Below are positions 1 to 43,153 of a stretch of 43,153 nt of DNA, piece by piece. The notes beneath the pieces were generated by a model. The model did not search any database and was not told the DNA's origin. It saw only the letters and a program-made list of their open reading frames with translations. The translations under genes and the position numbers were made by a program. Origin of the DNA: a virus; IMG/VR virus record IMGVR_UViG_3300045988_016831. One strand, 5' to 3'. Position 1 is the first letter of the stretch. Each line of letters opens with the position of its first letter.

Positions 1-64
1 AGCTCCACGGTCGGAGAGATGTGGGGCAGCTCCACGGTCAGAAAGATGTATGACAGCTCCACGG
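1..64. repeat. Terminal overlap identical to 43090..43153 (circular closure or terminal redundancy), lying inside the 27-bp tandem array
   Basis: Direct comparison: agctccacggtcggagagatgtggggcagctccacggtcagaaagatgtatgacagctccacgg occurs at both ends. Confidence 0.95.
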
Positions 65-165
65 CAAGGGATTTTAAAAACTATCCAAATATAAAAATCC
101 ACATCCCGAAGGGTGGTAAATTTGAGATGGTTGAGCATGAGGAGAAAAAACCATGCGATTCATAG
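1..165 (+). CDS. C-terminal end of the nonapeptide-repeat protein (continuation of 42397..43153 across the junction)
   Basis: Frame 1 is open from nt 1 (SSTVGEMWG SSTVRKMYD SSTARDFKNYPNIKIHIPKGGKFEMVEHEEKKPCDS) to TAG at 163..165. It is in phase with the ORF leaving the window at 43153 once the 64-nt overlap is removed. Confidence 0.75.
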   Translation, partial: SSTVGEMWGSSTVRKMYDSSTARDFKNYPNIKIHIPKGGKFEMVEHEEKKPCDS

Positions 166-1886: not shown

Positions 1887-1970
1887 ACAGAACGGCTACT
1901 TTGCCGCCGTGTCAAGGCAGAGAAACGATGTATATAAGACCCAGAGAGGGAGAAAGAGGAGGAAAGGTTG

Positions 1971-2873
1971 ATGCATATAGGGTTACATGACGCGGAAAAA
2001 GACCACATGAAGCATAAGACATTCCCCAATCTGGCACTTATGAAGCTATCAGCATGGCACAAGGAGCGAGGGGATGTTGTGGAATGGTGGAACCCCCTGT
2101 ATCATTATGACAGGGTGTATAGCAGCAAGGTGTTCGATTTCACTCCGGAAAATCCGTACCTGCCAGAAAATGCAATTCGTGGCGGTACTGGGTATAGGGA
2201 TATACCCATAAACAAGACACTTCCGGATGAAGTGGATGATACGAAACCAGATTACAGTATATATCCGGACTGCGATTATGCGATCGGGTATCTTACCCGT
2301 GGATGTGTCAGGAATTGCCGATGGTGTGTGGTGCCAAAGAAAGAGGGGCAGATCAGGCCATACCGACATTGGGAAGAAATTGTTCGGACGGATACGGATA
2401 AGCTGGTGTTAATGGACAATAACATATTGGCCTGTGCTCACGGCCTGTCTGAATTGGATGCACTTGTGGGCTCTGGATATCGCATAGATCTCAACCAGGG
2501 TATGGATGCAAGACTTGTGACTGATGATGTGGCGCATCTGTTAGCAAGGATGAAATGGATACGATATATCCGGTTCTCGTGCGACACCAAAGCACAGATT
2601 GAGCCAGTTTGCAAGACTATAGAATCACTTGGACGATACGGGGTCAAGCCATATCGGGTGTTCATCTATTTGCTGGTCACTCCTGATATACAAGATGCCG
2701 TGAAGAGAGTAGAGGCATTGAAAAAGTATGCAGGAATTAACCTGTATGCGCAGGCGGAGCGGAATGAGCGGCTTGGTATCATACCGAGTGCTGAACAGCT
2801 TGAATTTGCACAGAGATATATATACGGTGGGTCATACCGAAAAATGACATGGGAAGAATATAAGAGACGATAG
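1971..2873 (+). CDS. Radical SAM superfamily protein (unknown substrate)
   Basis: CVRNCRWC (CX3CX2C) at nt 2304..2327, preceded by a Rossmann-like N-region (PNLALMKLSAWHKERGDVV). GAGGAGG 8 nt before ATG 1971. Confidence 0.65.
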   Translation: MHIGLHDAEKDHMKHKTFPNLALMKLSAWHKERGDVVEWWNPLYHYDRVYSSKVFDFTPENPYLPENAIRGGTGYRDIPINKTLPDEVDDTKPDYSIYPDCDYAIGYLTRGCVRNCRWCVVPKKEGQIRPYRHWEEIVRTDTDKLVLMDNNILACAHGLSELDALVGSGYRIDLNQGMDARLVTDDVAHLLARMKWIRYIRFSCDTKAQIEPVCKTIESLGRYGVKPYRVFIYLLVTPDIQDAVKRVEALKKYAGINLYAQAERNERLGIIPSAEQLEFAQRYIYGGSYRKMTWEEYKRR

Positions 2874-2928
2874 AAAGGAGACCAACCTCCGGCCGGGGTA
2901 AGGGTATACCGGGTTTCCAGAAAAAATC

Positions 2929-3774
2929 ATGAAAACAAAATGTGAGATTTACAGAGACTCTATGCAAAACTACAAGAAGTATGGGATTCCGCGGGCACAG
3001 CTTGTCATTGCTGATGTGCCTTACAATGTCGGCTCTAACTTTTACGGAAGCAGTCCTCAATGGTACAACGGCGGTGACAACGCCAATGGCGAAAGCAAGC
3101 TGGCTGGAAAGGCGGCGTTTAATTCGGATTTCAACTTCAACCTGTATGAGTATTTCCATTTCTGCTCCCGAATGCTGCGGAAAGACGACACCAAGAAATC
3201 TATTAGAGGGCGGAGCAGTGACAGCCCGTGCATGATTGTATTCTGCGCCTTTGAGCAGTTGCAGACCTTGATAGCCGCAGCTTCCAAGCATGGATTCGTC
3301 CACTATATACCGCTGGTATTCGTTAAAAACTATAGCCCGCAGGTCTTAAAGGCAAATATGCGGGTGGTAGGAGCCACGGAGTACGCCCTGGTATTCTATC
3401 GGGACAGGCTTCCGAAGTTCAGAAACGGTGCACAGCGGGACGAGAACGGCAAGACAATCCGGGGCACCGGGAAGATGGTGTTTAACTGGTTCTCCTGGGA
3501 GAGGGACGGGAAGGACATCCCGAAGATTCATCCGGCACAGAAGCCCGTTGCAATCCTGAAAAGACTGATCGAGATCTTTACAGATCCGGGTGATGTGGTA
3601 ATTGACCCGTGCTGCGGCTCCGGCTCAACGCTCCGGGCGGCAGCAGAACTTGGGCGCAATGCCTACGGGTTCGAGATTGACCGGACATTCTATGAGCGGG
3701 CGAAAAATGAAATGCTGGTATTCGAGGAGGACGGCCAGATGGAAATTACAGATTTTTTGGAGGATAAGGCATGA
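2929..3774 (+). CDS. Beta-class amino (N6-A or N4-C) DNA methyltransferase
   Basis: Catalytic-type motif IADVPYN near the N-terminus. HPAQKPVAILKRLI and SAM motif DPCCGSGST near the C-terminus (motif IV before motif I). Confidence 0.8.
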   Translation: MKTKCEIYRDSMQNYKKYGIPRAQLVIADVPYNVGSNFYGSSPQWYNGGDNANGESKLAGKAAFNSDFNFNLYEYFHFCSRMLRKDDTKKSIRGRSSDSPCMIVFCAFEQLQTLIAAASKHGFVHYIPLVFVKNYSPQVLKANMRVVGATEYALVFYRDRLPKFRNGAQRDENGKTIRGTGKMVFNWFSWERDGKDIPKIHPAQKPVAILKRLIEIFTDPGDVVIDPCCGSGSTLRAAAELGRNAYGFEIDRTFYERAKNEMLVFEEDGQMEITDFLEDKA

Positions 3775-4058
3775 ACATCTACATCAGCGGCCCCATGCGG
3801 GGCGTAGACAACTACCGTGAGAAATTTGAGCGGGCAAAAAGAATCATCGAAGAAGGCGGACACAAGGTTATCAATCCGGCAGGACTTGACCTGTATGGCC
3901 TTACCAGGGAGCAAATACTCAACGTGGATCTGGTGCTGCTGGACTTGTGTGACACAATCTATATGCTGAAAGGCTGGGAGCAGTCCTGCGGAGCAAACCG
4001 GGAATACGGGTATGCACTTGGCAAGGGGCTGGACATTATGCTTGAGAGGGACGAGTGA
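3771..4058 (+). CDS. DUF4406 / nucleoside 2-deoxyribosyltransferase-like protein
   Basis: MNIYISGPMRG... and ...MLKGWEQSCGANREYGYA match DUF4406 signatures. ATGA overlaps with both flanking MTase genes. Confidence 0.6.
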   Translation: MNIYISGPMRGVDNYREKFERAKRIIEEGGHKVINPAGLDLYGLTREQILNVDLVLLDLCDTIYMLKGWEQSCGANREYGYALGKGLDIMLERDE

Positions 4059-5746
4059 TGATTAACGGAGAGATTATCGTCGATAACTTTGCCGGTGGAG
4101 GCGGAGCGTCTACAGGGATAGAGATTGCGACCGGGTACAGTGTTGATATAGCCATCAACCATGACCCGGAAGCTATCCGGATGCATAAGTCCAACCACCC
4201 AAACACAAAGCATTACTGCGAGGACGTCTGGCAGGTGGATCCGGTCAAGGCCTGTAAAGGGAATCCGGTTGCGCTTGCGTGGTTTTCGCCGGATTGCAAG
4301 CATTTCAGCAAGGCCAAGGGTGGAAAGCCCAAGGACAAGTTCATTCGCGGCCTGGCTTGGGTAGCCTGCCGATGGGCGGGGCTTGTTAGGCCGAGGGTGA
4401 TCATGTTGGAAAATGTGGAAGAGTTCAAGACCTGGGGTCCGCTGAACCGAGGCCATAGACCGATTAAGGCCAAGCAGGGCGTGACATTCCGGCGATTTAT
4501 TCAGCAGTTGGAAGATCTGGGCTATGAGGTACAGTTCCGGGAGCTGGTGGCTGCTGACTATGGAGCGCCAACCATGCGAAAGAGATTCTTCCTGATTGCC
4601 CGGTGTGATGGTAGGCCGATTGTGTGGCCGGAGCCTACACATGGGCCAGTGGACAGCGAAGCGGTCAAGGCCGGACTGCTCAAGCCCTATGTTGGAGCAT
4701 ACACACAGATAGATTTCAACCGGCCTTGCCCGTCAATTTTTGACACGTCGGAAGAAATCAAAGAGAAGTACGGAATCCGGGCGGTCAGACCGCTTGCACC
4801 AAAGACGATGGACAGAATAGCCCGTGGCTTGAAAAAATTTGTGTTGGACAACCCGGAACCGTTTATTGTCCAATGTAATCATGGAGGGGAACGTAAAGCG
4901 GGCGATATCCGGGAACCGCTTCCGACAATTACGGGCAAGCATGGATATGGGATTGCAGTGCCCAAACTGGCCCCGATAATCGATAAGGCTTATGGCGGTA
5001 ATTATGCCGGCAGTGGAAGCAGGGCAGATGAACCTATAGACACCATCACGACGGTAGACCACAATCGGCTGGTGGAAGCGACCCTTGCACCGTGTATCAT
5101 GTGTAACAACGAGAATAATGTCGGGGCGAATGTAGAAAACCCGCTCCCGACTATTACGACAGGGAACCGGAACTATCATTCCGAGACAGCCAAGGACGAG
5201 GTGCGCGGGCAGACTATCACGGATCCGATTATGACGGTGGACTCTTCCAACAGGTACGGACTGGTGACATCATTCCTGAGTAAGTTCTACAAGTCTGGCA
5301 CAGGACAGGACTTGCGGGAGCCGCTACATACCGTGACCACATCCCCGGGACACTTCGGGGAGGTAAGAGCCTTTTTGATTAAATACTACGGGCAAGGCAC
5401 CGGGCAGGATATTAAAGACCCGCTTGATACAGTTACAGCACAGGATCGCTTCGGACTTGTAACGATTGACGGCACAGATTACAAGATAGTGGATATTGGC
5501 CTGCGAATGCTGGAACCGCGAGAGTTATACGGCTGTCAGGGATTTCCGGAAGATTATATCATCGACCACGACTACACAGGAAAATCGTATAGCCGGAGCG
5601 AGCAGGTCAAGCGGTGCGGGAATGCCGTGTGTCCGCCGATTCCTGCGGCGCTGGTGCGGGCTAATCTTCCAGAGCTGTGCGTTGCAAAAAGAACAGGGAA
5701 CATCATGATACGGGAAGAGGACACAGGCCAGTTACGGCTGGCGTAA
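4055..5746 (+). CDS. DNA (cytosine-5)-methyltransferase with expanded variable region
   Basis: Motif I DNFAGGGG, motif IV SPDCKHFS, motif VI MLENV, motif VIII QFRE..ADYGAP, motif IX QGFP, motif X GNAVCPP. About 185 aa between VIII and IX carry six [DE]P[LI]xT[IV]T-type repeats. Confidence 0.9.
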   Translation: MMINGEIIVDNFAGGGGASTGIEIATGYSVDIAINHDPEAIRMHKSNHPNTKHYCEDVWQVDPVKACKGNPVALAWFSPDCKHFSKAKGGKPKDKFIRGLAWVACRWAGLVRPRVIMLENVEEFKTWGPLNRGHRPIKAKQGVTFRRFIQQLEDLGYEVQFRELVAADYGAPTMRKRFFLIARCDGRPIVWPEPTHGPVDSEAVKAGLLKPYVGAYTQIDFNRPCPSIFDTSEEIKEKYGIRAVRPLAPKTMDRIARGLKKFVLDNPEPFIVQCNHGGERKAGDIREPLPTITGKHGYGIAVPKLAPIIDKAYGGNYAGSGSRADEPIDTITTVDHNRLVEATLAPCIMCNNENNVGANVENPLPTITTGNRNYHSETAKDEVRGQTITDPIMTVDSSNRYGLVTSFLSKFYKSGTGQDLREPLHTVTTSPGHFGEVRAFLIKYYGQGTGQDIKDPLDTVTAQDRFGLVTIDGTDYKIVDIGLRMLEPRELYGCQGFPEDYIIDHDYTGKSYSRSEQVKRCGNAVCPPIPAALVRANLPELCVAKRTGNIMIREEDTGQLRLA

Positions 5747-32947: not shown

Positions 32948-34495
32948 TTAAATCCTCAATTTTACTGACATTCTAAACGGTACATGACTCTTCGCTTCTT
33001 CGTGCGTCCTTGAATATTCGATTCGTTCTATTACAGTTTTCAGAAAAGCGTTCTTTTCTTTGGCAGACAGCGAAGTGCTTTCTATGGCCTTAATCGCATC
33101 GGAAAGCATGGCAATCTTTTTTTGAAGATGTTCCCTCTGTGGTTTCTCGCTCCGCAACTGTTCCAGAGCTTTTTCAGCATTCCCTTTGCTTTCCGTATTT
33201 TTCAGATTCAACTTGTCGAAGATCTCCTTCGGCATTTCTCCATCCGCATACTTTTCCCATAGATGTAACTCTTTCAGTTCTAGCGTTTGCACCTGCTTCT
33301 CAAGCATCTGGATCTGGGCTTCTTTTTCTCGACCATCGCTTTCTTCTTCGAGCTCTATCTTGCAATCCTCAATAGAGCAGAGCAAGGATGATACTAATGC
33401 CTGCGAATATTCGGAAAATAGGCAAGAAGCAGCTTCGCAATTTGTAAGACCAGAACATACAAGTCGAGGATTATATTTGAACTTTCCATTCCGGAGCCCC
33501 GTGTGGTACATCATGGCTCTTCCGCAGATACCGCAATACGCAATTCCAGCAACAGGGTTGACCTGCTCATAGCTATCACGCTTCCGACTCCGGTTTTTGA
33601 GCAGCTCTTGGACGTGAACAAAAACATCATGGTCTATCATCCGCGGGTGCCGCGCTGGGAAAAGCTCATAGTCTTTTGAGCGCGGCCTGGATTTGACAAC
33701 TTCCCCGTCTTTCACGCGTGAGACATCGCCACGCCTTTTCCAGGCAATCATCTGGTCGTAGTGGTCATTCTTGGCAATATCGAGGAGCATCTGAACCGTC
33801 CAGGGCTTCCCGGCTGGTGAATTTGCTCCCATAGCCTTTAATTCTTTTGCCACAGTATATGGCAGCACGCCTGCGTTAAGTCGGTCGAAGATATACCGGA
33901 CTGTTGGCGCATCGGGGCCGAAATCCAGTGTAGGCCGCTTCCTCTTCCCATCCTGCACAGTTACACGGACAAAACCGAACGGCGGCTTTGAAGCGATATA
34001 CCATCCATCCTTGACAGACTGATATTTTCCACGGGCAAGAATTTTTTTCGTATATTCCAGATATTCATTTCCTCTCTTAAGTTCCCTCTCAAAGAAATCC
34101 CGGTCGTAGTCATCCTCAATATCATATATCTTTTGAGGTGTGATCACCTTGGTATGGGTATACCGCAGTATCTTAATCAGTCGCCCAGCGTCCTCTAGGT
34201 CTCCTCTGGATAATCGCTGAACCTCTACCACCAGCACGCCCTTAATACCAGGTGATTCCACCTGACGGAGAACCTTGCAGAATTCCGGGCGATCTGCTAT
34301 GGTCTCGCCGGATACGACCTCCCGATAAAAGTTCTTTGCCGGGATATCGTGGACAAGGTTCCGGCCTATCCACTCCCGGATAATCTCTTCGTGCTTTTGA
34401 AGCACATCCTCTACCGATAAATATGGGTCATCGGATCTGGATTTTCGGAGATAGACAAGGATCTCCTCTGGTTTGAATTCGTAAGATTGATACAC
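32948..34495 (-). CDS. int: Large serine recombinase (integrase)
   Basis: The resolvase-type N-domain motif VYLRKSRSD carries the catalytic Ser. Recombinase domain, zinc ribbon CGICGRAM...C, and C-terminal coiled coil. GTG start with AAGGAGG upstream. Confidence 0.9.
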   Translation of the reverse strand: MYQSYEFKPEEILVYLRKSRSDDPYLSVEDVLQKHEEIIREWIGRNLVHDIPAKNFYREVVSGETIADRPEFCKVLRQVESPGIKGVLVVEVQRLSRGDLEDAGRLIKILRYTHTKVITPQKIYDIEDDYDRDFFERELKRGNEYLEYTKKILARGKYQSVKDGWYIASKPPFGFVRVTVQDGKRKRPTLDFGPDAPTVRYIFDRLNAGVLPYTVAKELKAMGANSPAGKPWTVQMLLDIAKNDHYDQMIAWKRRGDVSRVKDGEVVKSRPRSKDYELFPARHPRMIDHDVFVHVQELLKNRSRKRDSYEQVNPVAGIAYCGICGRAMMYHTGLRNGKFKYNPRLVCSGLTNCEAASCLFSEYSQALVSSLLCSIEDCKIELEEESDGREKEAQIQMLEKQVQTLELKELHLWEKYADGEMPKEIFDKLNLKNTESKGNAEKALEQLRSEKPQREHLQKKIAMLSDAIKAIESTSLSAKEKNAFLKTVIERIEYSRTHEEAKSHVPFRMSVKLRI

Positions 34496-34978: not shown

Positions 34979-35563
34979 CTACTTTCCTGTTATGTAGCTG
35001 TCCACGCCATCGCAGGCCGATTTCCGGCCATTCTCAACCACCTTGGACAGCGATTCAATATCAGGCATAATCTCACCCTCATTGACCAGCTCACCACGAG
35101 CGGATTCCATCAAAAAGTTGTCATACACGGTCTGAGCCACGTTCACCCTTGACCGCATAGAGCAGTGATTATCCGCTACAATCATGTTAAGCTGTTCACG
35201 CCACGATGATCCAGTATTGCCGAAGATGCAGAAGTAAGCCCGCCGGATATCCGTGTCGGTGAAATAGGTATCAACGTAGTGATGTATCTGCTCTCTCATG
35301 GATGCAATATTGCCATCTGTGCTGTGTGATATTGTGCCTGGATTATTATACTCTACTAAGTAACGCCCCAAATTCAGCCCAAGGACTTCAAACCATCGTT
35401 CCAAGGTGCGGTACCCCGGTTCCCCGATTCCAGCTTCCCAATTCTGAATGGTATTTATTGACTTCCCCAAGGCCTGTGCCATGTACTTACGGGACTTTCC
35501 CGCGTCTGCGCGGGATTTCTCGAGCATTAGCCCGAAAGCCCTTGCTCTGTCTGCTTCCATCAT
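34979..35563 (-). CDS. XRE-family HTH regulator with ~120-aa unknown C-domain
   Basis: GKSRKYMAQALGKSINTIQNWEAGIGEP is an XRE-type HTH. No S24 peptidase motifs seen. Confidence 0.7.
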   Translation of the reverse strand: MMEADRARAFGLMLEKSRADAGKSRKYMAQALGKSINTIQNWEAGIGEPGYRTLERWFEVLGLNLGRYLVEYNNPGTISHSTDGNIASMREQIHHYVDTYFTDTDIRRAYFCIFGNTGSSWREQLNMIVADNHCSMRSRVNVAQTVYDNFLMESARGELVNEGEIMPDIESLSKVVENGRKSACDGVDSYITGK

Positions 35564-40804: not shown

Positions 40805-41078
40805 CCGTAAACTCCGCAGGCTGATAGCCGAGGCCAACGCGCAGGGCTGTCTCATTATCAACGTGGGGAGCGGAATATATATCCCAAGGCTTGACGTACC
40901 GGAAGAGGACAGCGAGCTGCGGGAGTATATCGCAAAAGAGACCAGCAGAGGCGTGGAGACACTGAAAAAGGCAAGGGCTATGAATAAGGCCTACCAGCGA
41001 TTAAAGGCCGTATATCAAGGCCAGATAAGCATGGAGGACTACGTGGACGAGTGGAGGATGTGGCAGAATGAGGGATAG
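40710..41078 (+). CDS. Hypothetical protein (122 aa)
   Basis: GAGAGGAGGG before the ATG. Confidence 0.5.
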   Translation: MKQQDIEARLLFRQIGIGRERAIKRPENRSLDRKLRRLIAEANAQGCLIINVGSGIYIPRLDVPEEDSELREYIAKETSRGVETLKKARAMNKAYQRLKAVYQGQISMEDYVDEWRMWQNEG

Positions 41079-41796
41079 CTTTGTGCTGTATACCGAGTAT
41101 ATGGCTCAAATAGAACTCCTAAACATGGAGCAACGGGGCGAACTGCTTACCGCAATCATGAATCATGCGCTTGGCAGAGCGTCACCGGAGTTGGACGCCG
41201 TCACATCAATGGCCTTTAGCTTTATCAGATCCAGAATGGACAGAGACGGCGAAAAGTACGAAAAGACAGTGGAAGCACGAAAAGAAGCCGGTAAGATGGG
41301 CGGTAGGCCTAAAGCAAATGGTTTTTCGGAAAAGCAAACGAAAGCAAAAAAAGCAAATGGTTTTTCGGAAAAGCAAACGAAAGCAAAAAAACCTGTATAT
41401 GATCCTGATAGTGATTGTGATAATGATAAAAATAATATGTCGCCGCCCACAAGTGGGGGCCGCCCTGCATACCAGTATGCGGAGATTATTGATTATCTGA
41501 ATCAAAAAGCCGGGACACGGTACAAACACTCGTCCGAGGATACACGTAAGCATATACGGGCACGTGTCAATGATGGCTATACCCTTGATGACTTTAAGGC
41601 CGTGATTGACCGCAAGGTTGAGGAATGGAAGGGCACGGAGTGGGAAAAGTTTTTGAGACCGTCCACCCTGTTCGGGAGCAAATTCGAAAGCTATTTAAAC
41701 CAGAAAGAGGAGCCAAAAGGAAAAAAGACGGCCTTTAGCAACTTTCCGGAAAGAGATTATGACAAGAGCTTGATGGATAGCCTTGTCGGAAGGTGA
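41068..41796 (+). CDS. Replisome organiser-like protein with a conserved phage C-terminus (Phg_2220_C type)
   Basis: IIDYLNQKAGTRYKHSSEDTRKHIRARVNDGYTLDDFKAVIDRKV..W......FLRPSTLFGSKFESYLNQ. Confidence 0.65.
   Translation: MRDSFVLYTEYMAQIELLNMEQRGELLTAIMNHALGRASPELDAVTSMAFSFIRSRMDRDGEKYEKTVEARKEAGKMGGRPKANGFSEKQTKAKKANGFSEKQTKAKKPVYDPDSDCDNDKNNMSPPTSGGRPAYQYAEIIDYLNQKAGTRYKHSSEDTRKHIRARVNDGYTLDDFKAVIDRKVEEWKGTEWEKFLRPSTLFGSKFESYLNQKEEPKGKKTAFSNFPERDYDKSLMDSLVGR
41314..41391 (+). repeat. Perfect 39-bp tandem duplication inside the replisome-organiser gene
   Basis: gcaaatggtttttcggaaaagcaaacgaaagcaaaaaaa occurs twice, encoding ANGFSEKQTKAKK twice. Confidence 0.95.
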
Positions 41797-41802
41797 GGGA
41801 AA

Positions 41803-42045
41803 ATGACAGAGCAGAAAAAGCAGGAGATCCGGCGGCTGGAAAAGCTGCATGGGGTCAAGGTTGGGGAGCGCGTAAAGCTCCGCATACAGAGTACACTGCG
41901 GGACGAGGAGGTAGACAGTGACGGAGTGCATGAGATTCGCGGCAAGGTCTACCAGGTGTATGAGCGGTTTGTGGTTATCAAGACCAGTTTCGGGACGCAC
42001 CCGAGTTACTTCTGGAGCGATTTTGAAAAATGGAGGGTAGGCTGA
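41803..42045 (+). CDS. Hypothetical protein (80 aa)
   Basis: ORF preceded by GGTGAGGGAAA. Confidence 0.5.
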   Translation: MTEQKKQEIRRLEKLHGVKVGERVKLRIQSTLRDEEVDSDGVHEIRGKVYQVYERFVVIKTSFGTHPSYFWSDFEKWRVG

Positions 42046-42404
42046 TGATTACAGAGGCGGAAAAACTGGAGATTCTGGACGAGCTGGAGAAACGTCTGGA
42101 CGGTCGGCTGAAAAAGATACCGGAGCGAGAGGTGTCCGGAAGGATCCTGAAAGCACCACGGGAAAAATGGTTTAGTGACACTGATGGGTATTGTGGTACA
42201 TCGCTGATGGGCGAGGCATTCGGCTCCGGCCCGATAGCATGGGAAGCGTGGGAAGCCATCAGAAAGCTGACTTGTGCAGTGTGCGGCGTGAGAAAAGTGC
42301 GAGAGCTTAAGACTGTCGAGGAATCCCCGGTAGTTGCAGAAAAGATATGCCAGTATATCTATGACCTGGCGATAGAGTTTAAGGAGGGAAAAGATCATGT
42401 GTAG
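42045..42404 (+). CDS. Hypothetical protein (119 aa)
   Basis: TGATG overlap with the upstream gene. Confidence 0.5.
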   Translation: MITEAEKLEILDELEKRLDGRLKKIPEREVSGRILKAPREKWFSDTDGYCGTSLMGEAFGSGPIAWEAWEAIRKLTCAVCGVRKVRELKTVEESPVVAEKICQYIYDLAIEFKEGKDHV

Positions 42405-43153
42405 ATTTAAAAGTGGGATTATATTCAAAAGCCGGTGCGTGGTAGCTCCTGGAGAAAATGACAGTCACAGCGATTTATTGCGTGAGCTGAACGTTGAAGA
42501 CACTTATACCAACGCGTCAAGGGTATTTGTACGGGCCGAGCTTGTCTCGAAAAATGGTGAATGGTGGACAGACCCGGACGGCTGGGAGTACGTGGTAGAT
42601 CAGGACGTGACGCCGGACTGGTACGATACAGATCCGGGCAAATATGAAGAGGAGTTCCGACAGTCGGTAAAAGCATGGTGGAGTGAACACGTACTTGTAG
42701 ACAAAAAGATTGACGAGCTGTCCGGCGGATACTACAGGTTAAAGCGGTGCGAGGTCAAGAAACTGCTGAATGGTGTTAAAGTATATCTTAACAGCTCCAC
42801 GGTCGGAGAGATGTATGACAGCTCCACGGTCGGAGAGATGTGTGGCAGCTCCACGGTCGGAGAGATGTGGGGCAGCTCCACGGTCGGAGAGATGTGGGGC
42901 AGCTCCACGGTCGGAAAGATGTATGACAGCTCCACGGTCGGAAAGATGTGGGGCAGCTCCACGGTCGGAAAGATGTATGACAGCTCCACGGTCAGAAAGA
43001 TGTATGACAGCTCCACGGTCGGAGAGATGTGGGGCAGCTCCACGGTCAGAAAGATGTATGACAGCTCCACGGTCGGAAAGATGTATGGAAGCTCCACGGT
43101 CGGAGAGATGTGGGGCAGCTCCACGGTCAGAAAGATGTATGACAGCTCCACGG
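42397..43153 (+). CDS. Nonapeptide-repeat protein, N-terminal part (open at the window end; completed by 1..165)
   Basis: AAGGAGGG 8 nt before ATG 42397. There is no stop before the window end, so it is absent from the ORF track. A 132-aa unique domain is followed by SSTV[GR][EK]M[YWC][DG] units. Confidence 0.75.
   Translation, partial: MCRFKSGIIFKSRCVVAPGENDSHSDLLRELNVEDTYTNASRVFVRAELVSKNGEWWTDPDGWEYVVDQDVTPDWYDTDPGKYEEEFRQSVKAWWSEHVLVDKKIDELSGGYYRLKRCEVKKLLNGVKVYLNSSTVGEMYDSSTVGEMCGSSTVGEMWGSSTVGEMWGSSTVGKMYDSSTVGKMWGSSTVGKMYDSSTVRKMYDSSTVGEMWGSSTVRKMYDSSTVGKMYGSSTVGEMWGSSTVRKMYDSST
42793..43153 (+). repeat. 27-bp tandem repeat array (13 full units plus a partial one; the last 2.4 units duplicate nt 1..64)
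   Basis: Units start at 42793 and every 27 nt after. 21 of 27 columns are invariant; variation is limited to columns 13, 16, 23, 24, 26 and 27. Confidence 0.95.

Follow-up and report, generated by a model that had tools for sequence, protein, structure and literature searches.

The viral genome recorded in IMG/VR as IMGVR_UViG_3300045988_016831, analysed here as one window of 43,153 nt, carries across its assembly junction a gene whose product joins a conserved N-terminal module of about 97 residues (the N-module) to a run of near-identical nine-residue units that is predicted to form a beta-solenoid. Among the relatives of this gene the units vary at a few codons in a way that points to selection for amino-acid diversity, and in a group of sister proteins the same N-module bears a domain that is mutated by a diversity-generating retroelement (DGR). 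We favour, with modest confidence, the reading that the product is a cytoplasmic early protein that bears a putative hypervariable binding surface and probably serves in conflict between phage and host or between phages. A first-pass annotation, made from the letters of the window, had already described the gene and its array; the family-wide signature of diversifying selection and the N-module common to DGR targets go beyond it and are new.

The open reading frame (ORF) starts with the ATG at 42397 on the plus strand, and its frame continues past the end of the window at 43153. As the first-pass annotation had noticed, the gene is missing from the six-frame list, since the ORF-listing program omits a frame that runs off the window's end. 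The same annotation had let the gene finish at position 165 with about 285 residues, and this is reproduced once the 64-bp overlap between the two ends of the window is collapsed: the ORF then resumes at 65 and stops at the TAG of 163-165, for a total of 858 nt and 285 residues. Without collapsing the overlap, the frame breaks. The protein is laid out as 132 unique residues, 13 full units of the pattern SSTV[GR][EK]M[YWC][DG], both as originally described, then a degenerate fourteenth unit (SSTARDFKN) and a tail of 33 residues. Tandem Repeats Finder describes the array as a period of 27 in 13.4 copies (score 530) and as a period-81 super-repeat (score 626).

Judged from its relatives, the gene is a genuine protein-coding member of a large family, so far uncharacterised, that is carried by Clostridia phages and prophages. 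A word-indexed search, in which 8000 candidates were scored, returned 744 homologues at E <= 1e-3, and an exhaustive phmmer search with the N-domain matched 704 clusters at 50% identity. The relatives have in common an N part of the form MC[RQG]FKSGII..., nine-residue units in varying number and a tail of the form ..ARDFKNYPNIKIHIPKGGKFEMV.... The alternative of an untranslated or frame-broken region was checked in the 63 complete genes of the nine-residue type that were recovered: in all of them the frame is intact through the array and the tail is at least 29 residues long, with 3 to 27 units. Carriers include Clostridium porci, Anaerotaenia torta, Lacrimispora, Hungatella, Roseburia and Oscillospiraceae; among cultured strains, C. 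porci WCA-389-WT-23D1 holds two copies on two contigs (L091, L093) and A. torta DSM 100431 holds one (L090). One GenBank phage, Dulem virus 35, likewise has the gene, and the protein, wherever a source names it, is listed as "hypothetical".

Database searches gave the family no name. The window protein has no family match in Pfam, PHROGs or NCBIfam; its Pfam scan at E <= 10 produced just three unrelated chance matches, with none to ArdA (PF07275). PADLOC matched no family member when queried with an 87%-identical relative (P0003), other relatives and the neighbouring ORFs of the window, and no description of the family was found in the literature.

The N-module also heads arrays of other unit lengths, namely of eight residues (P0197, P0205, P0236 and P0267, with units such as GNSTVTAY and LYNNSSAV) and of seven (P0224, GGTAYIY). 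These arrays have variable positions of their own and a different C-terminal cap (..TKTIYQSGDWKLV), and the DNA of their units is unrelated to that of the window.

Within the window's array, 21 of the 27 nucleotide columns are invariant and the differences in the other six fall entirely in codons 5, 6, 8 and 9, which agrees with the first-pass count. Departures from the array consensus that change the amino acid occur in 3 units at codon 5 and in 6 units at each of codons 6, 8 and 9. The single synonymous change is a GGA for GGC in unit 11, and codons 1-4 and 7 show no difference at all.

The analysis of variation was extended to 57 distinct arrays from viral and genomic loci, with variant codons counted within each array. 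It yielded 526 non-synonymous and 48 synonymous variant codons, i.e. a synonymous share of 8.4% where random single-base changes would give 21.8% (binomial p = 1e-17, a value that overstates the evidence, as the arrays are phylogenetically related). An omega-like ratio is highest at codons 6 and 8 (20.7 and 11.7), lower at codons 5, 9, 1 and 3 (5.7, 3.4, 3.1 and 2.2) and lowest at the scaffold codons 4 and 2 (1.0 and 0.5). Counted as events, codon 5 has 66 non-synonymous to 3 synonymous and codon 6 has 123 to 1. The consensus codon for the scaffold residue Val4 is GTC in 22 arrays, GTA in 12, GTG in 12 and GTT in 7, and is uniform inside each array. Hence, the peptide scaffold is conserved across lineages, with its silent sites homogenised within each lineage. 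The non-synonymous excess and this uniformity, taken as a pair, argue for concerted evolution plus selection for amino-acid diversity at few positions. The array is young or homogenised, as the first description of a recently expanded repeat had proposed. Substitutions are mostly transitions and are alike in both directions (114 G-to-A and 92 A-to-G). The variable residues are unordered along young arrays, with an identity of about 0.58 at all lags, in keeping with the combinatorial mixing noticed at the outset.

Sister proteins with a DGR-diversified domain

Neighbouring ORFs were clustered for 110 complete loci. About two dozen loci (23 counted) encode the N-module followed by a DUF6273-like domain in place of the repeats, and directly 3' of this gene lie Avd, a template repeat (TR) and a reverse transcriptase (RT). 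The Avd of one such locus, L128, matches phrog_3206 (E = 5e-19), while the RT of the sister loci matches RVT_1 (51.5 bits) and phrog_1423 (E = 1e-106). The variable repeat (VR) occupies the 3' end of the target gene and has its TR copy in the intergenic stretch, for example VR 4671-4759 and TR 5264-5352 in L084. Pooled over the 23 loci, 315 of the 373 VR/TR mismatches stand at TR adenines. Complete cassettes of target, Avd, TR and RT are found in Lachnospiraceae elements (L067-L088 and L123-L144; L128:6001-8533). In the literature, DUF6273 is described as a C-lectin-like domain that DGRs target and whose C-terminal end holds the VR, and domains of this type have been interpreted as receptor-binding (PMC10743442; bioRxiv 10.1101/2024.10.15.618418).

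The sister N-modules are 48-62% identical to that of the window, which makes them as close as many solenoid-type relatives. In a neighbour-joining tree, built without bootstrap, the DGR-type N-modules group in one clade, which falls among solenoid types and has the clade of the window as its sister. One constant module thus carries either a hypermutated domain or a repeat rod, and this is the strongest argument for the rod as a diversified recognition module.

A DGR acting on the window gene itself was considered and rejected: tblastn with the RT of L137 and the Avd of L128 found neither an RT nor an Avd in the window, and the substitutions are bidirectional. The Tandem Repeats Finder scan of the window reports tandem arrays only, no scan for dispersed TR/VR repeats having been made.

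The modelled solenoid and what it resembles

AlphaFold2, run on the whole protein with a 56-sequence alignment, returned a model with a predicted local distance difference test (pLDDT) score of 93.9 and a predicted template modelling (pTM) score of 0.84. Residues 1 to about 97 are modelled as an alpha/beta module; from residue 99 onwards, DSSP assigns one 5-residue strand per 7-9 residues, the strands of the cap coils being 99-101, 104-108, 112-116, 119-123 and 128-132. In the perfect units the predicted strand spans positions 3-7 and the turn positions 8, 9, 1 and 2, so that the model has one strand per nine residues, consistent with the solenoid-type repeat that had been suspected. In this model the rod resembles other repeat proteins in having a homogenised core that degenerate units cap at both the N- and the C-terminal end. 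As to the 18-residue turn that the first-pass annotation had asked about, an 18-residue super-period is the most frequent in the older degenerate arrays of distant relatives, which fits two units per coil, but a two-unit periodicity of the variable residues in young arrays is rejected, identity being the same at every lag.

Comparison of the full model with PDB by Foldseek gave no significant match (best E = 0.06). The weak matches are mostly beta-helices, including pectate lyases, left-handed beta-helix (LbH) acyltransferases, Qnr/MfpA, the CAP C-domain and RTX; against BFVD, the full model found uncharacterised homologue fragments only. The N-module modelled alone scores a pLDDT of 96.4 and has no structural match in PDB (Foldseek, best E = 0.8). 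An N-module profile searched against PDB sequences found nothing below E = 0.2, a Pfam scan of 40 N-modules found no match, and a profile of the full alignment against PDB sequences found a single match, to a LIM-domain protein, which was driven by the repeats.

Across 40 diverse N-modules the invariant residues are C2 (right after Met1), S6, K11, H24, D35, W63, D68-Q69-D70, P73 and W75; C2 and H24 are missing together in two distant members. From its conservation, the invariant polar cluster (Cys2, His24, Asp35/68/70) looks like an active site or a metal site, and we infer from it a possible catalytic or metal-binding role. In hydropathy the protein peaks at 0.57 (Kyte-Doolittle, 19-residue window), which speaks against both a signal peptide and a membrane segment, and the 285-residue product (32 kDa) is most likely cytoplasmic. 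The array has a net charge of just -2, on which ground a DNA mimic, or anti-restriction by charge, was rejected.

In function the protein would most resemble, by analogy, hypervariable tandem-repeat binders and DGR variable proteins, as a member of neither group. With transcription activator-like effector (TALE) repeats and their repeat-variable diresidues, bacterial leucine-rich repeat (LRR) arrays (PMC10392669) and lamprey variable lymphocyte receptors (VLRs) it has in common near-identical tandem units made of a scaffold and a few hypervariable residues, changes of unit number through recombination or slippage, cap units at the ends that have diverged, and a solenoid shape. Variation is confined here as it is there, to 6 of the 27 columns in the window, and the non-synonymous events of the family are concentrated in codons 6, 8, 5 and 9. 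By contrast, the units of those proteins are alpha or alpha/beta solenoid units of 20-34 residues, whereas the window protein is a predicted 9-residue beta-solenoid of the phage's early, cytoplasmic repertoire, and there is no sequence or fold relationship between them. The DUF6273 targets of DGRs (Mtd-like proteins, tentaclins; PMC10743442) are alike in pairing a constant part with a diversified binding part, and the sisters even share the N-module; the window, however, has no RT, Avd or C-lectin-like domain, and would reshuffle units instead of relying on adenine-directed mutagenic retrohoming.

Other short-repeat proteins are less close. The RTX nonapeptide beta-roll (GGxGxDxUx) also has a 9-residue repeat with a short strand per unit, and an 18-residue two-strand coil is plausible for the window protein as well; yet the window's units lack the calcium-binding GGxGxD turn, match no Pfam repeat model including HemolysinCabind, and belong to a protein that is not secreted. 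The RTX structure 9p0c is a chance-level Foldseek match (E = 4). Pentapeptide-repeat proteins (Qnr/MfpA) and hexapeptide LbH proteins are likewise cytoplasmic short-repeat beta-solenoids and occur among the weak Foldseek matches (Qnr, MfpA and LbH enzymes, E >= 0.17, TM <= 0.26), but their periods are 5 (A[D/N]LXX) and 6 ([LIV]-G-X4) as opposed to 9, and neither Pfam model matches.

A putative binding surface and its alternatives

The window is that of a temperate Clostridia phage, with a serine integrase and a repressor on the minus strand. Its rightward early operon runs from an exonuclease, NinB, a RusA-like resolvase and a DnaD-like initiator through two small unknown genes to the repeat gene and two further unknown genes; a radical SAM protein, two DNA methyltransferases and a deoxyribosyltransferase-like gene follow, with the late genes afterwards. 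The first-pass assignment to an early phage gene is thus upheld, the gene sitting in the early/middle operon. In Dulem virus 35 and in the prophage carrying P0079, the gene is among the first of the early operon and follows closely on cro-like genes. One relative, P0151 (L163:794-2764; 656 residues in one ORF), consists of an N-module without C2 and H24, a degenerate 9-residue solenoid and a C-terminal ArdA domain (54.8 bits). The early-operon place, the lack of tail genes beside L128 (the one DGR-type locus scanned with PHROGs) and this ArdA fusion point to an intracellular protein that is made early in infection, and the context weakly suggests a role in counter-defence or exclusion.

The mechanism that we propose is as follows. 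The N-module, whose fold has no recognisable match, would be the constant part. The variable part would be the beta-solenoid rod, in which degenerate cap coils enclose the nearly uniform 9-residue units of the array. Within each unit, positions 2, 4 and 7 (small, Val/Ile and Met/Ile) would serve as the scaffold, and positions 5, 6, 8 and 9 are hypervariable. Whole units would duplicate, delete and recombine, which would keep the silent sites uniform and move the rod's length in 9-residue steps, and selection would keep and reshuffle amino-acid diversity at the four variable positions. The rod would then be a fast-evolving ligand-binding surface on a constant module, in the role that the C-lectin-like domain has in the sisters where it replaces the rod, and the likely setting would be an intracellular arms race, be it counter-defence or exclusion.

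A broader proposal, which we regard as possible but doubtful, is that the family comprises intracellular "targeting" proteins, in which a constant N-terminal effector, possibly an N-terminal-cysteine enzyme, is fitted with interchangeable diversity devices, either a DGR-diversified C-lectin-like domain or an RT-free solenoid cassette, in which recombination would reshuffle both the four hypervariable positions and the number of units. The array would then offer a second way, independent of the first, to recognition that is programmable or adapts quickly. In the extreme and equally tentative form of the proposal, drawn by analogy, the units would each recognise a single element of a periodic ligand, in the way that a TALE repeat recognises a DNA base.

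If the binding surface is real, gut phages diversify one kind of protein by at least two routes, namely a DGR or a plain tandem-repeat cassette that needs no dedicated enzyme. It would also supply a new class of candidate proteins for conflict between phage and host or among phages, comprising hundreds of clusters with no Pfam or PHROG family and with neither part having a solved fold. A 9-residue beta-solenoid unit with four naturally randomised positions, moreover, resembles a natural library scaffold for protein engineering.

Several points weigh against a binding surface. The window taken alone, at 5 non-synonymous versus 1 synonymous minimal mutational events, is not significant, and the 57 arrays are related, as stated above. 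The exposure of positions 5, 6, 8 and 9 on one face is an assumption of this reading. Neighbourhood clustering of the 110 loci found no conserved partner gene for the solenoid type. The ArdA fusion comes from a single 4-kb contig at 3.4x coverage and is either a true fusion or a sequencing error. The copy-number differences derive mostly from short-read assemblies, which are able to collapse arrays. Lastly, the sequence of P0079 is exactly identical on the 11 contigs found by exact-sequence look-up, including a 2.78-Mb NCBI contig, which shows that some lineages are stable.

The foremost alternative, which we consider unlikely, is a structural rod, spacer or self-assembling scaffold, for which length or polymerisation is what matters and unit differences are either tolerated or set the folding register and prevent mis-stacking. 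It would fit the regularity of the modelled solenoid, length changes in unit steps, the lack of positional order along young arrays and the want of a known partner or ligand. Neutral tolerance, however, predicts at least as many synonymous as non-synonymous changes per site, in conflict with omega-like ratios of 12-21 at codons 8 and 6. In addition, the N-module of 23 loci carries a DGR-mutagenised C-lectin-like domain, which is a binding module and not a rod, and the Pfam models for bactofilin, hexapeptide and pentapeptide repeats do not match.

We hold it to be quite unlikely that the product, though its gene lies outside the tail module, belongs to the virion and serves in receptor binding or host adhesion as do most phage DGR targets (Mtd, tentaclins). 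The receptor-binding interpretation of the sisters' DUF6273 domain in the literature cited above speaks for it, as does the fact that beta-helices are common in tailspikes and that the weak Foldseek matches include tailspike-like folds. Nevertheless, the window gene sits among early recombination and replication genes, and its relatives in Dulem virus 35 and the P0079 prophage come directly after the cro-like region. The flanks of L128, the sole DGR-type locus that was scanned with PHROGs, hold sigma-factor-like, polymerase-like and transposase genes, with no match to a tail protein. Furthermore, the product lacks a signal peptide or membrane segment, and its size of 32 kDa and the want of a recognisable tail-attachment domain set it apart from known receptor-binding proteins.

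Unit number, assembly and neighbouring genes

That the break inside the array leaves its copy number uncertain was part of the first description, and it can now be put more sharply. The 64-mer that closes the assembly occurs three times in the window, starting at 1, 43009 and 43090, and the 81-bp loop of units 11-13 can hence be traversed any number of times. Thirteen units is one possible assembly path for the window. Proteins with identical N parts and tails have 8 (P0355), 9 (P0001), 10 (P0356) and 13 units (the window). Within clusters of 90% identity, member lengths differ in 9-residue steps, and one such cluster has proteins of 289 residues on at least 15 independent contigs, of 262 residues on at least 15 and of 226 residues on 3.

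The possibility that the array is real and fixed in each phage, and is merely collapsed or looped differently by short-read assemblers, appears improbable as an account of all these differences. It draws on the triple occurrence of the 64-mer, on the difference between P0356 and the window, which is exactly the ambiguous 81-bp loop, on the 50 of 160 related loci that end inside the gene, and on the identity of P0079 across contigs. Against it, the recurrence of length classes on independent contigs argues for real alleles, P0001 and P0355 have lost internal units relative to P0356 in a manner other than simple loops of the like kind, and the family-wide range in unit number comes with unique unit orders. 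Part of the apparent copy-number variation may still be assembly collapse. Of the copy-number-variable contingency locus proposed at first, the variable number is borne out by these relatives, and the gene does resemble contingency loci in having a tandem DNA repeat whose unit number differs among close relatives; strict on/off switching is not, as a 27-bp unit preserves the frame.

That the array works as DNA, in the form of origin iterons, a packaging site or a protein-binding array with an incidental ORF, is effectively refuted by the codon-level pattern, which rules out a purely DNA-level function: the array does lie just downstream of the replication-initiator gene and has a 12-nt invariant core (AGCTCCACGGTC), but synonymous changes are avoided even in its variable segments, the "core" differs between arrays at synonymous positions with the peptide conserved, all relatives keep the frame and the conserved N and C protein parts, and the architecture recurs with 8-residue and 7-residue units whose DNA is unrelated.

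Short-read assemblies tend to break at the array, and in several phages the two halves of the gene are found at opposite ends of the contig. The terminal direct repeat behind "circular/complete" calls arises from the array, so that neither a copy number nor a completeness call can be relied on in this phage group.

Positions of the repeat gene's parts and of neighbouring features in the window
Feature	Position	Strand	Remark
Serine integrase	32948-34495	-	
Repressor	34979-35563	-	
DnaD-like initiator ORF	41068-41796		
Tandem duplication in the initiator ORF	41311-41391		perfect, 39 bp x 2.1
Upstream ORF	42030..42404		124 aa
Shine-Dalgarno-like AAGGAGG	42381..42387	+	9 nt 5' of the start codon; read from sequence
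N-module, residues 1 to about 97	42397..42687	+	AlphaFold2 model, conservation, shared with DGR targets
Degenerate N-terminal cap coils of the predicted solenoid, residues about 98-132	42688..42792	+	DSSP strands
Minus-strand ORF through the array	42732-43151	-	139 aa; rejected as a gene
13 units of 27 bp, SSTV[GR][EK]M[YWC][DG]	42793..43143	+	each a predicted 5-residue strand and 4-residue turn
Terminal 64 bases of the window	43090..43153		same as 1..64 and 43009..43072; assembly closure point within the array
64-base duplicate of 43090..43153	1..64		needs collapsing for the gene to be read
Rest of the degenerate 14th unit and conserved C-terminal cap (..ARDFKNYPNIKIHIPKGGKFEMVEHEEKKPCDS)	65..165	+	TAG at 163-165
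DNA-modification island	1968-5746		
DNA methyltransferase	2929-3774		
Nucleoside 2-deoxyribosyltransferase-like ORF	3771-4058		
DNA methyltransferase	4055-5746		563 aa

The upstream ORF (ATGTGTAG) has its stop codon within the start of the repeat gene, and the 3' end of the repeat gene overlaps the next ORF, which starts at 153. PADLOC matches of the upstream ORF to DpdC are weak only (E = 0.002-0.005) and probably noise. The minus-strand ORF (VELSYIFLTVELPHISPT...) was rejected as a gene; it is a by-product of the stop-free repeat, and its flanks are without conservation. Within the DNA-modification island, the radical SAM protein corresponds to phrog_9298 and is accompanied by the two methyltransferases and the deoxyribosyltransferase-like ORF listed above. 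A second tandem repeat, found in the DnaD-like initiator ORF, reads in frame as ANGFSEKQTKAKK.

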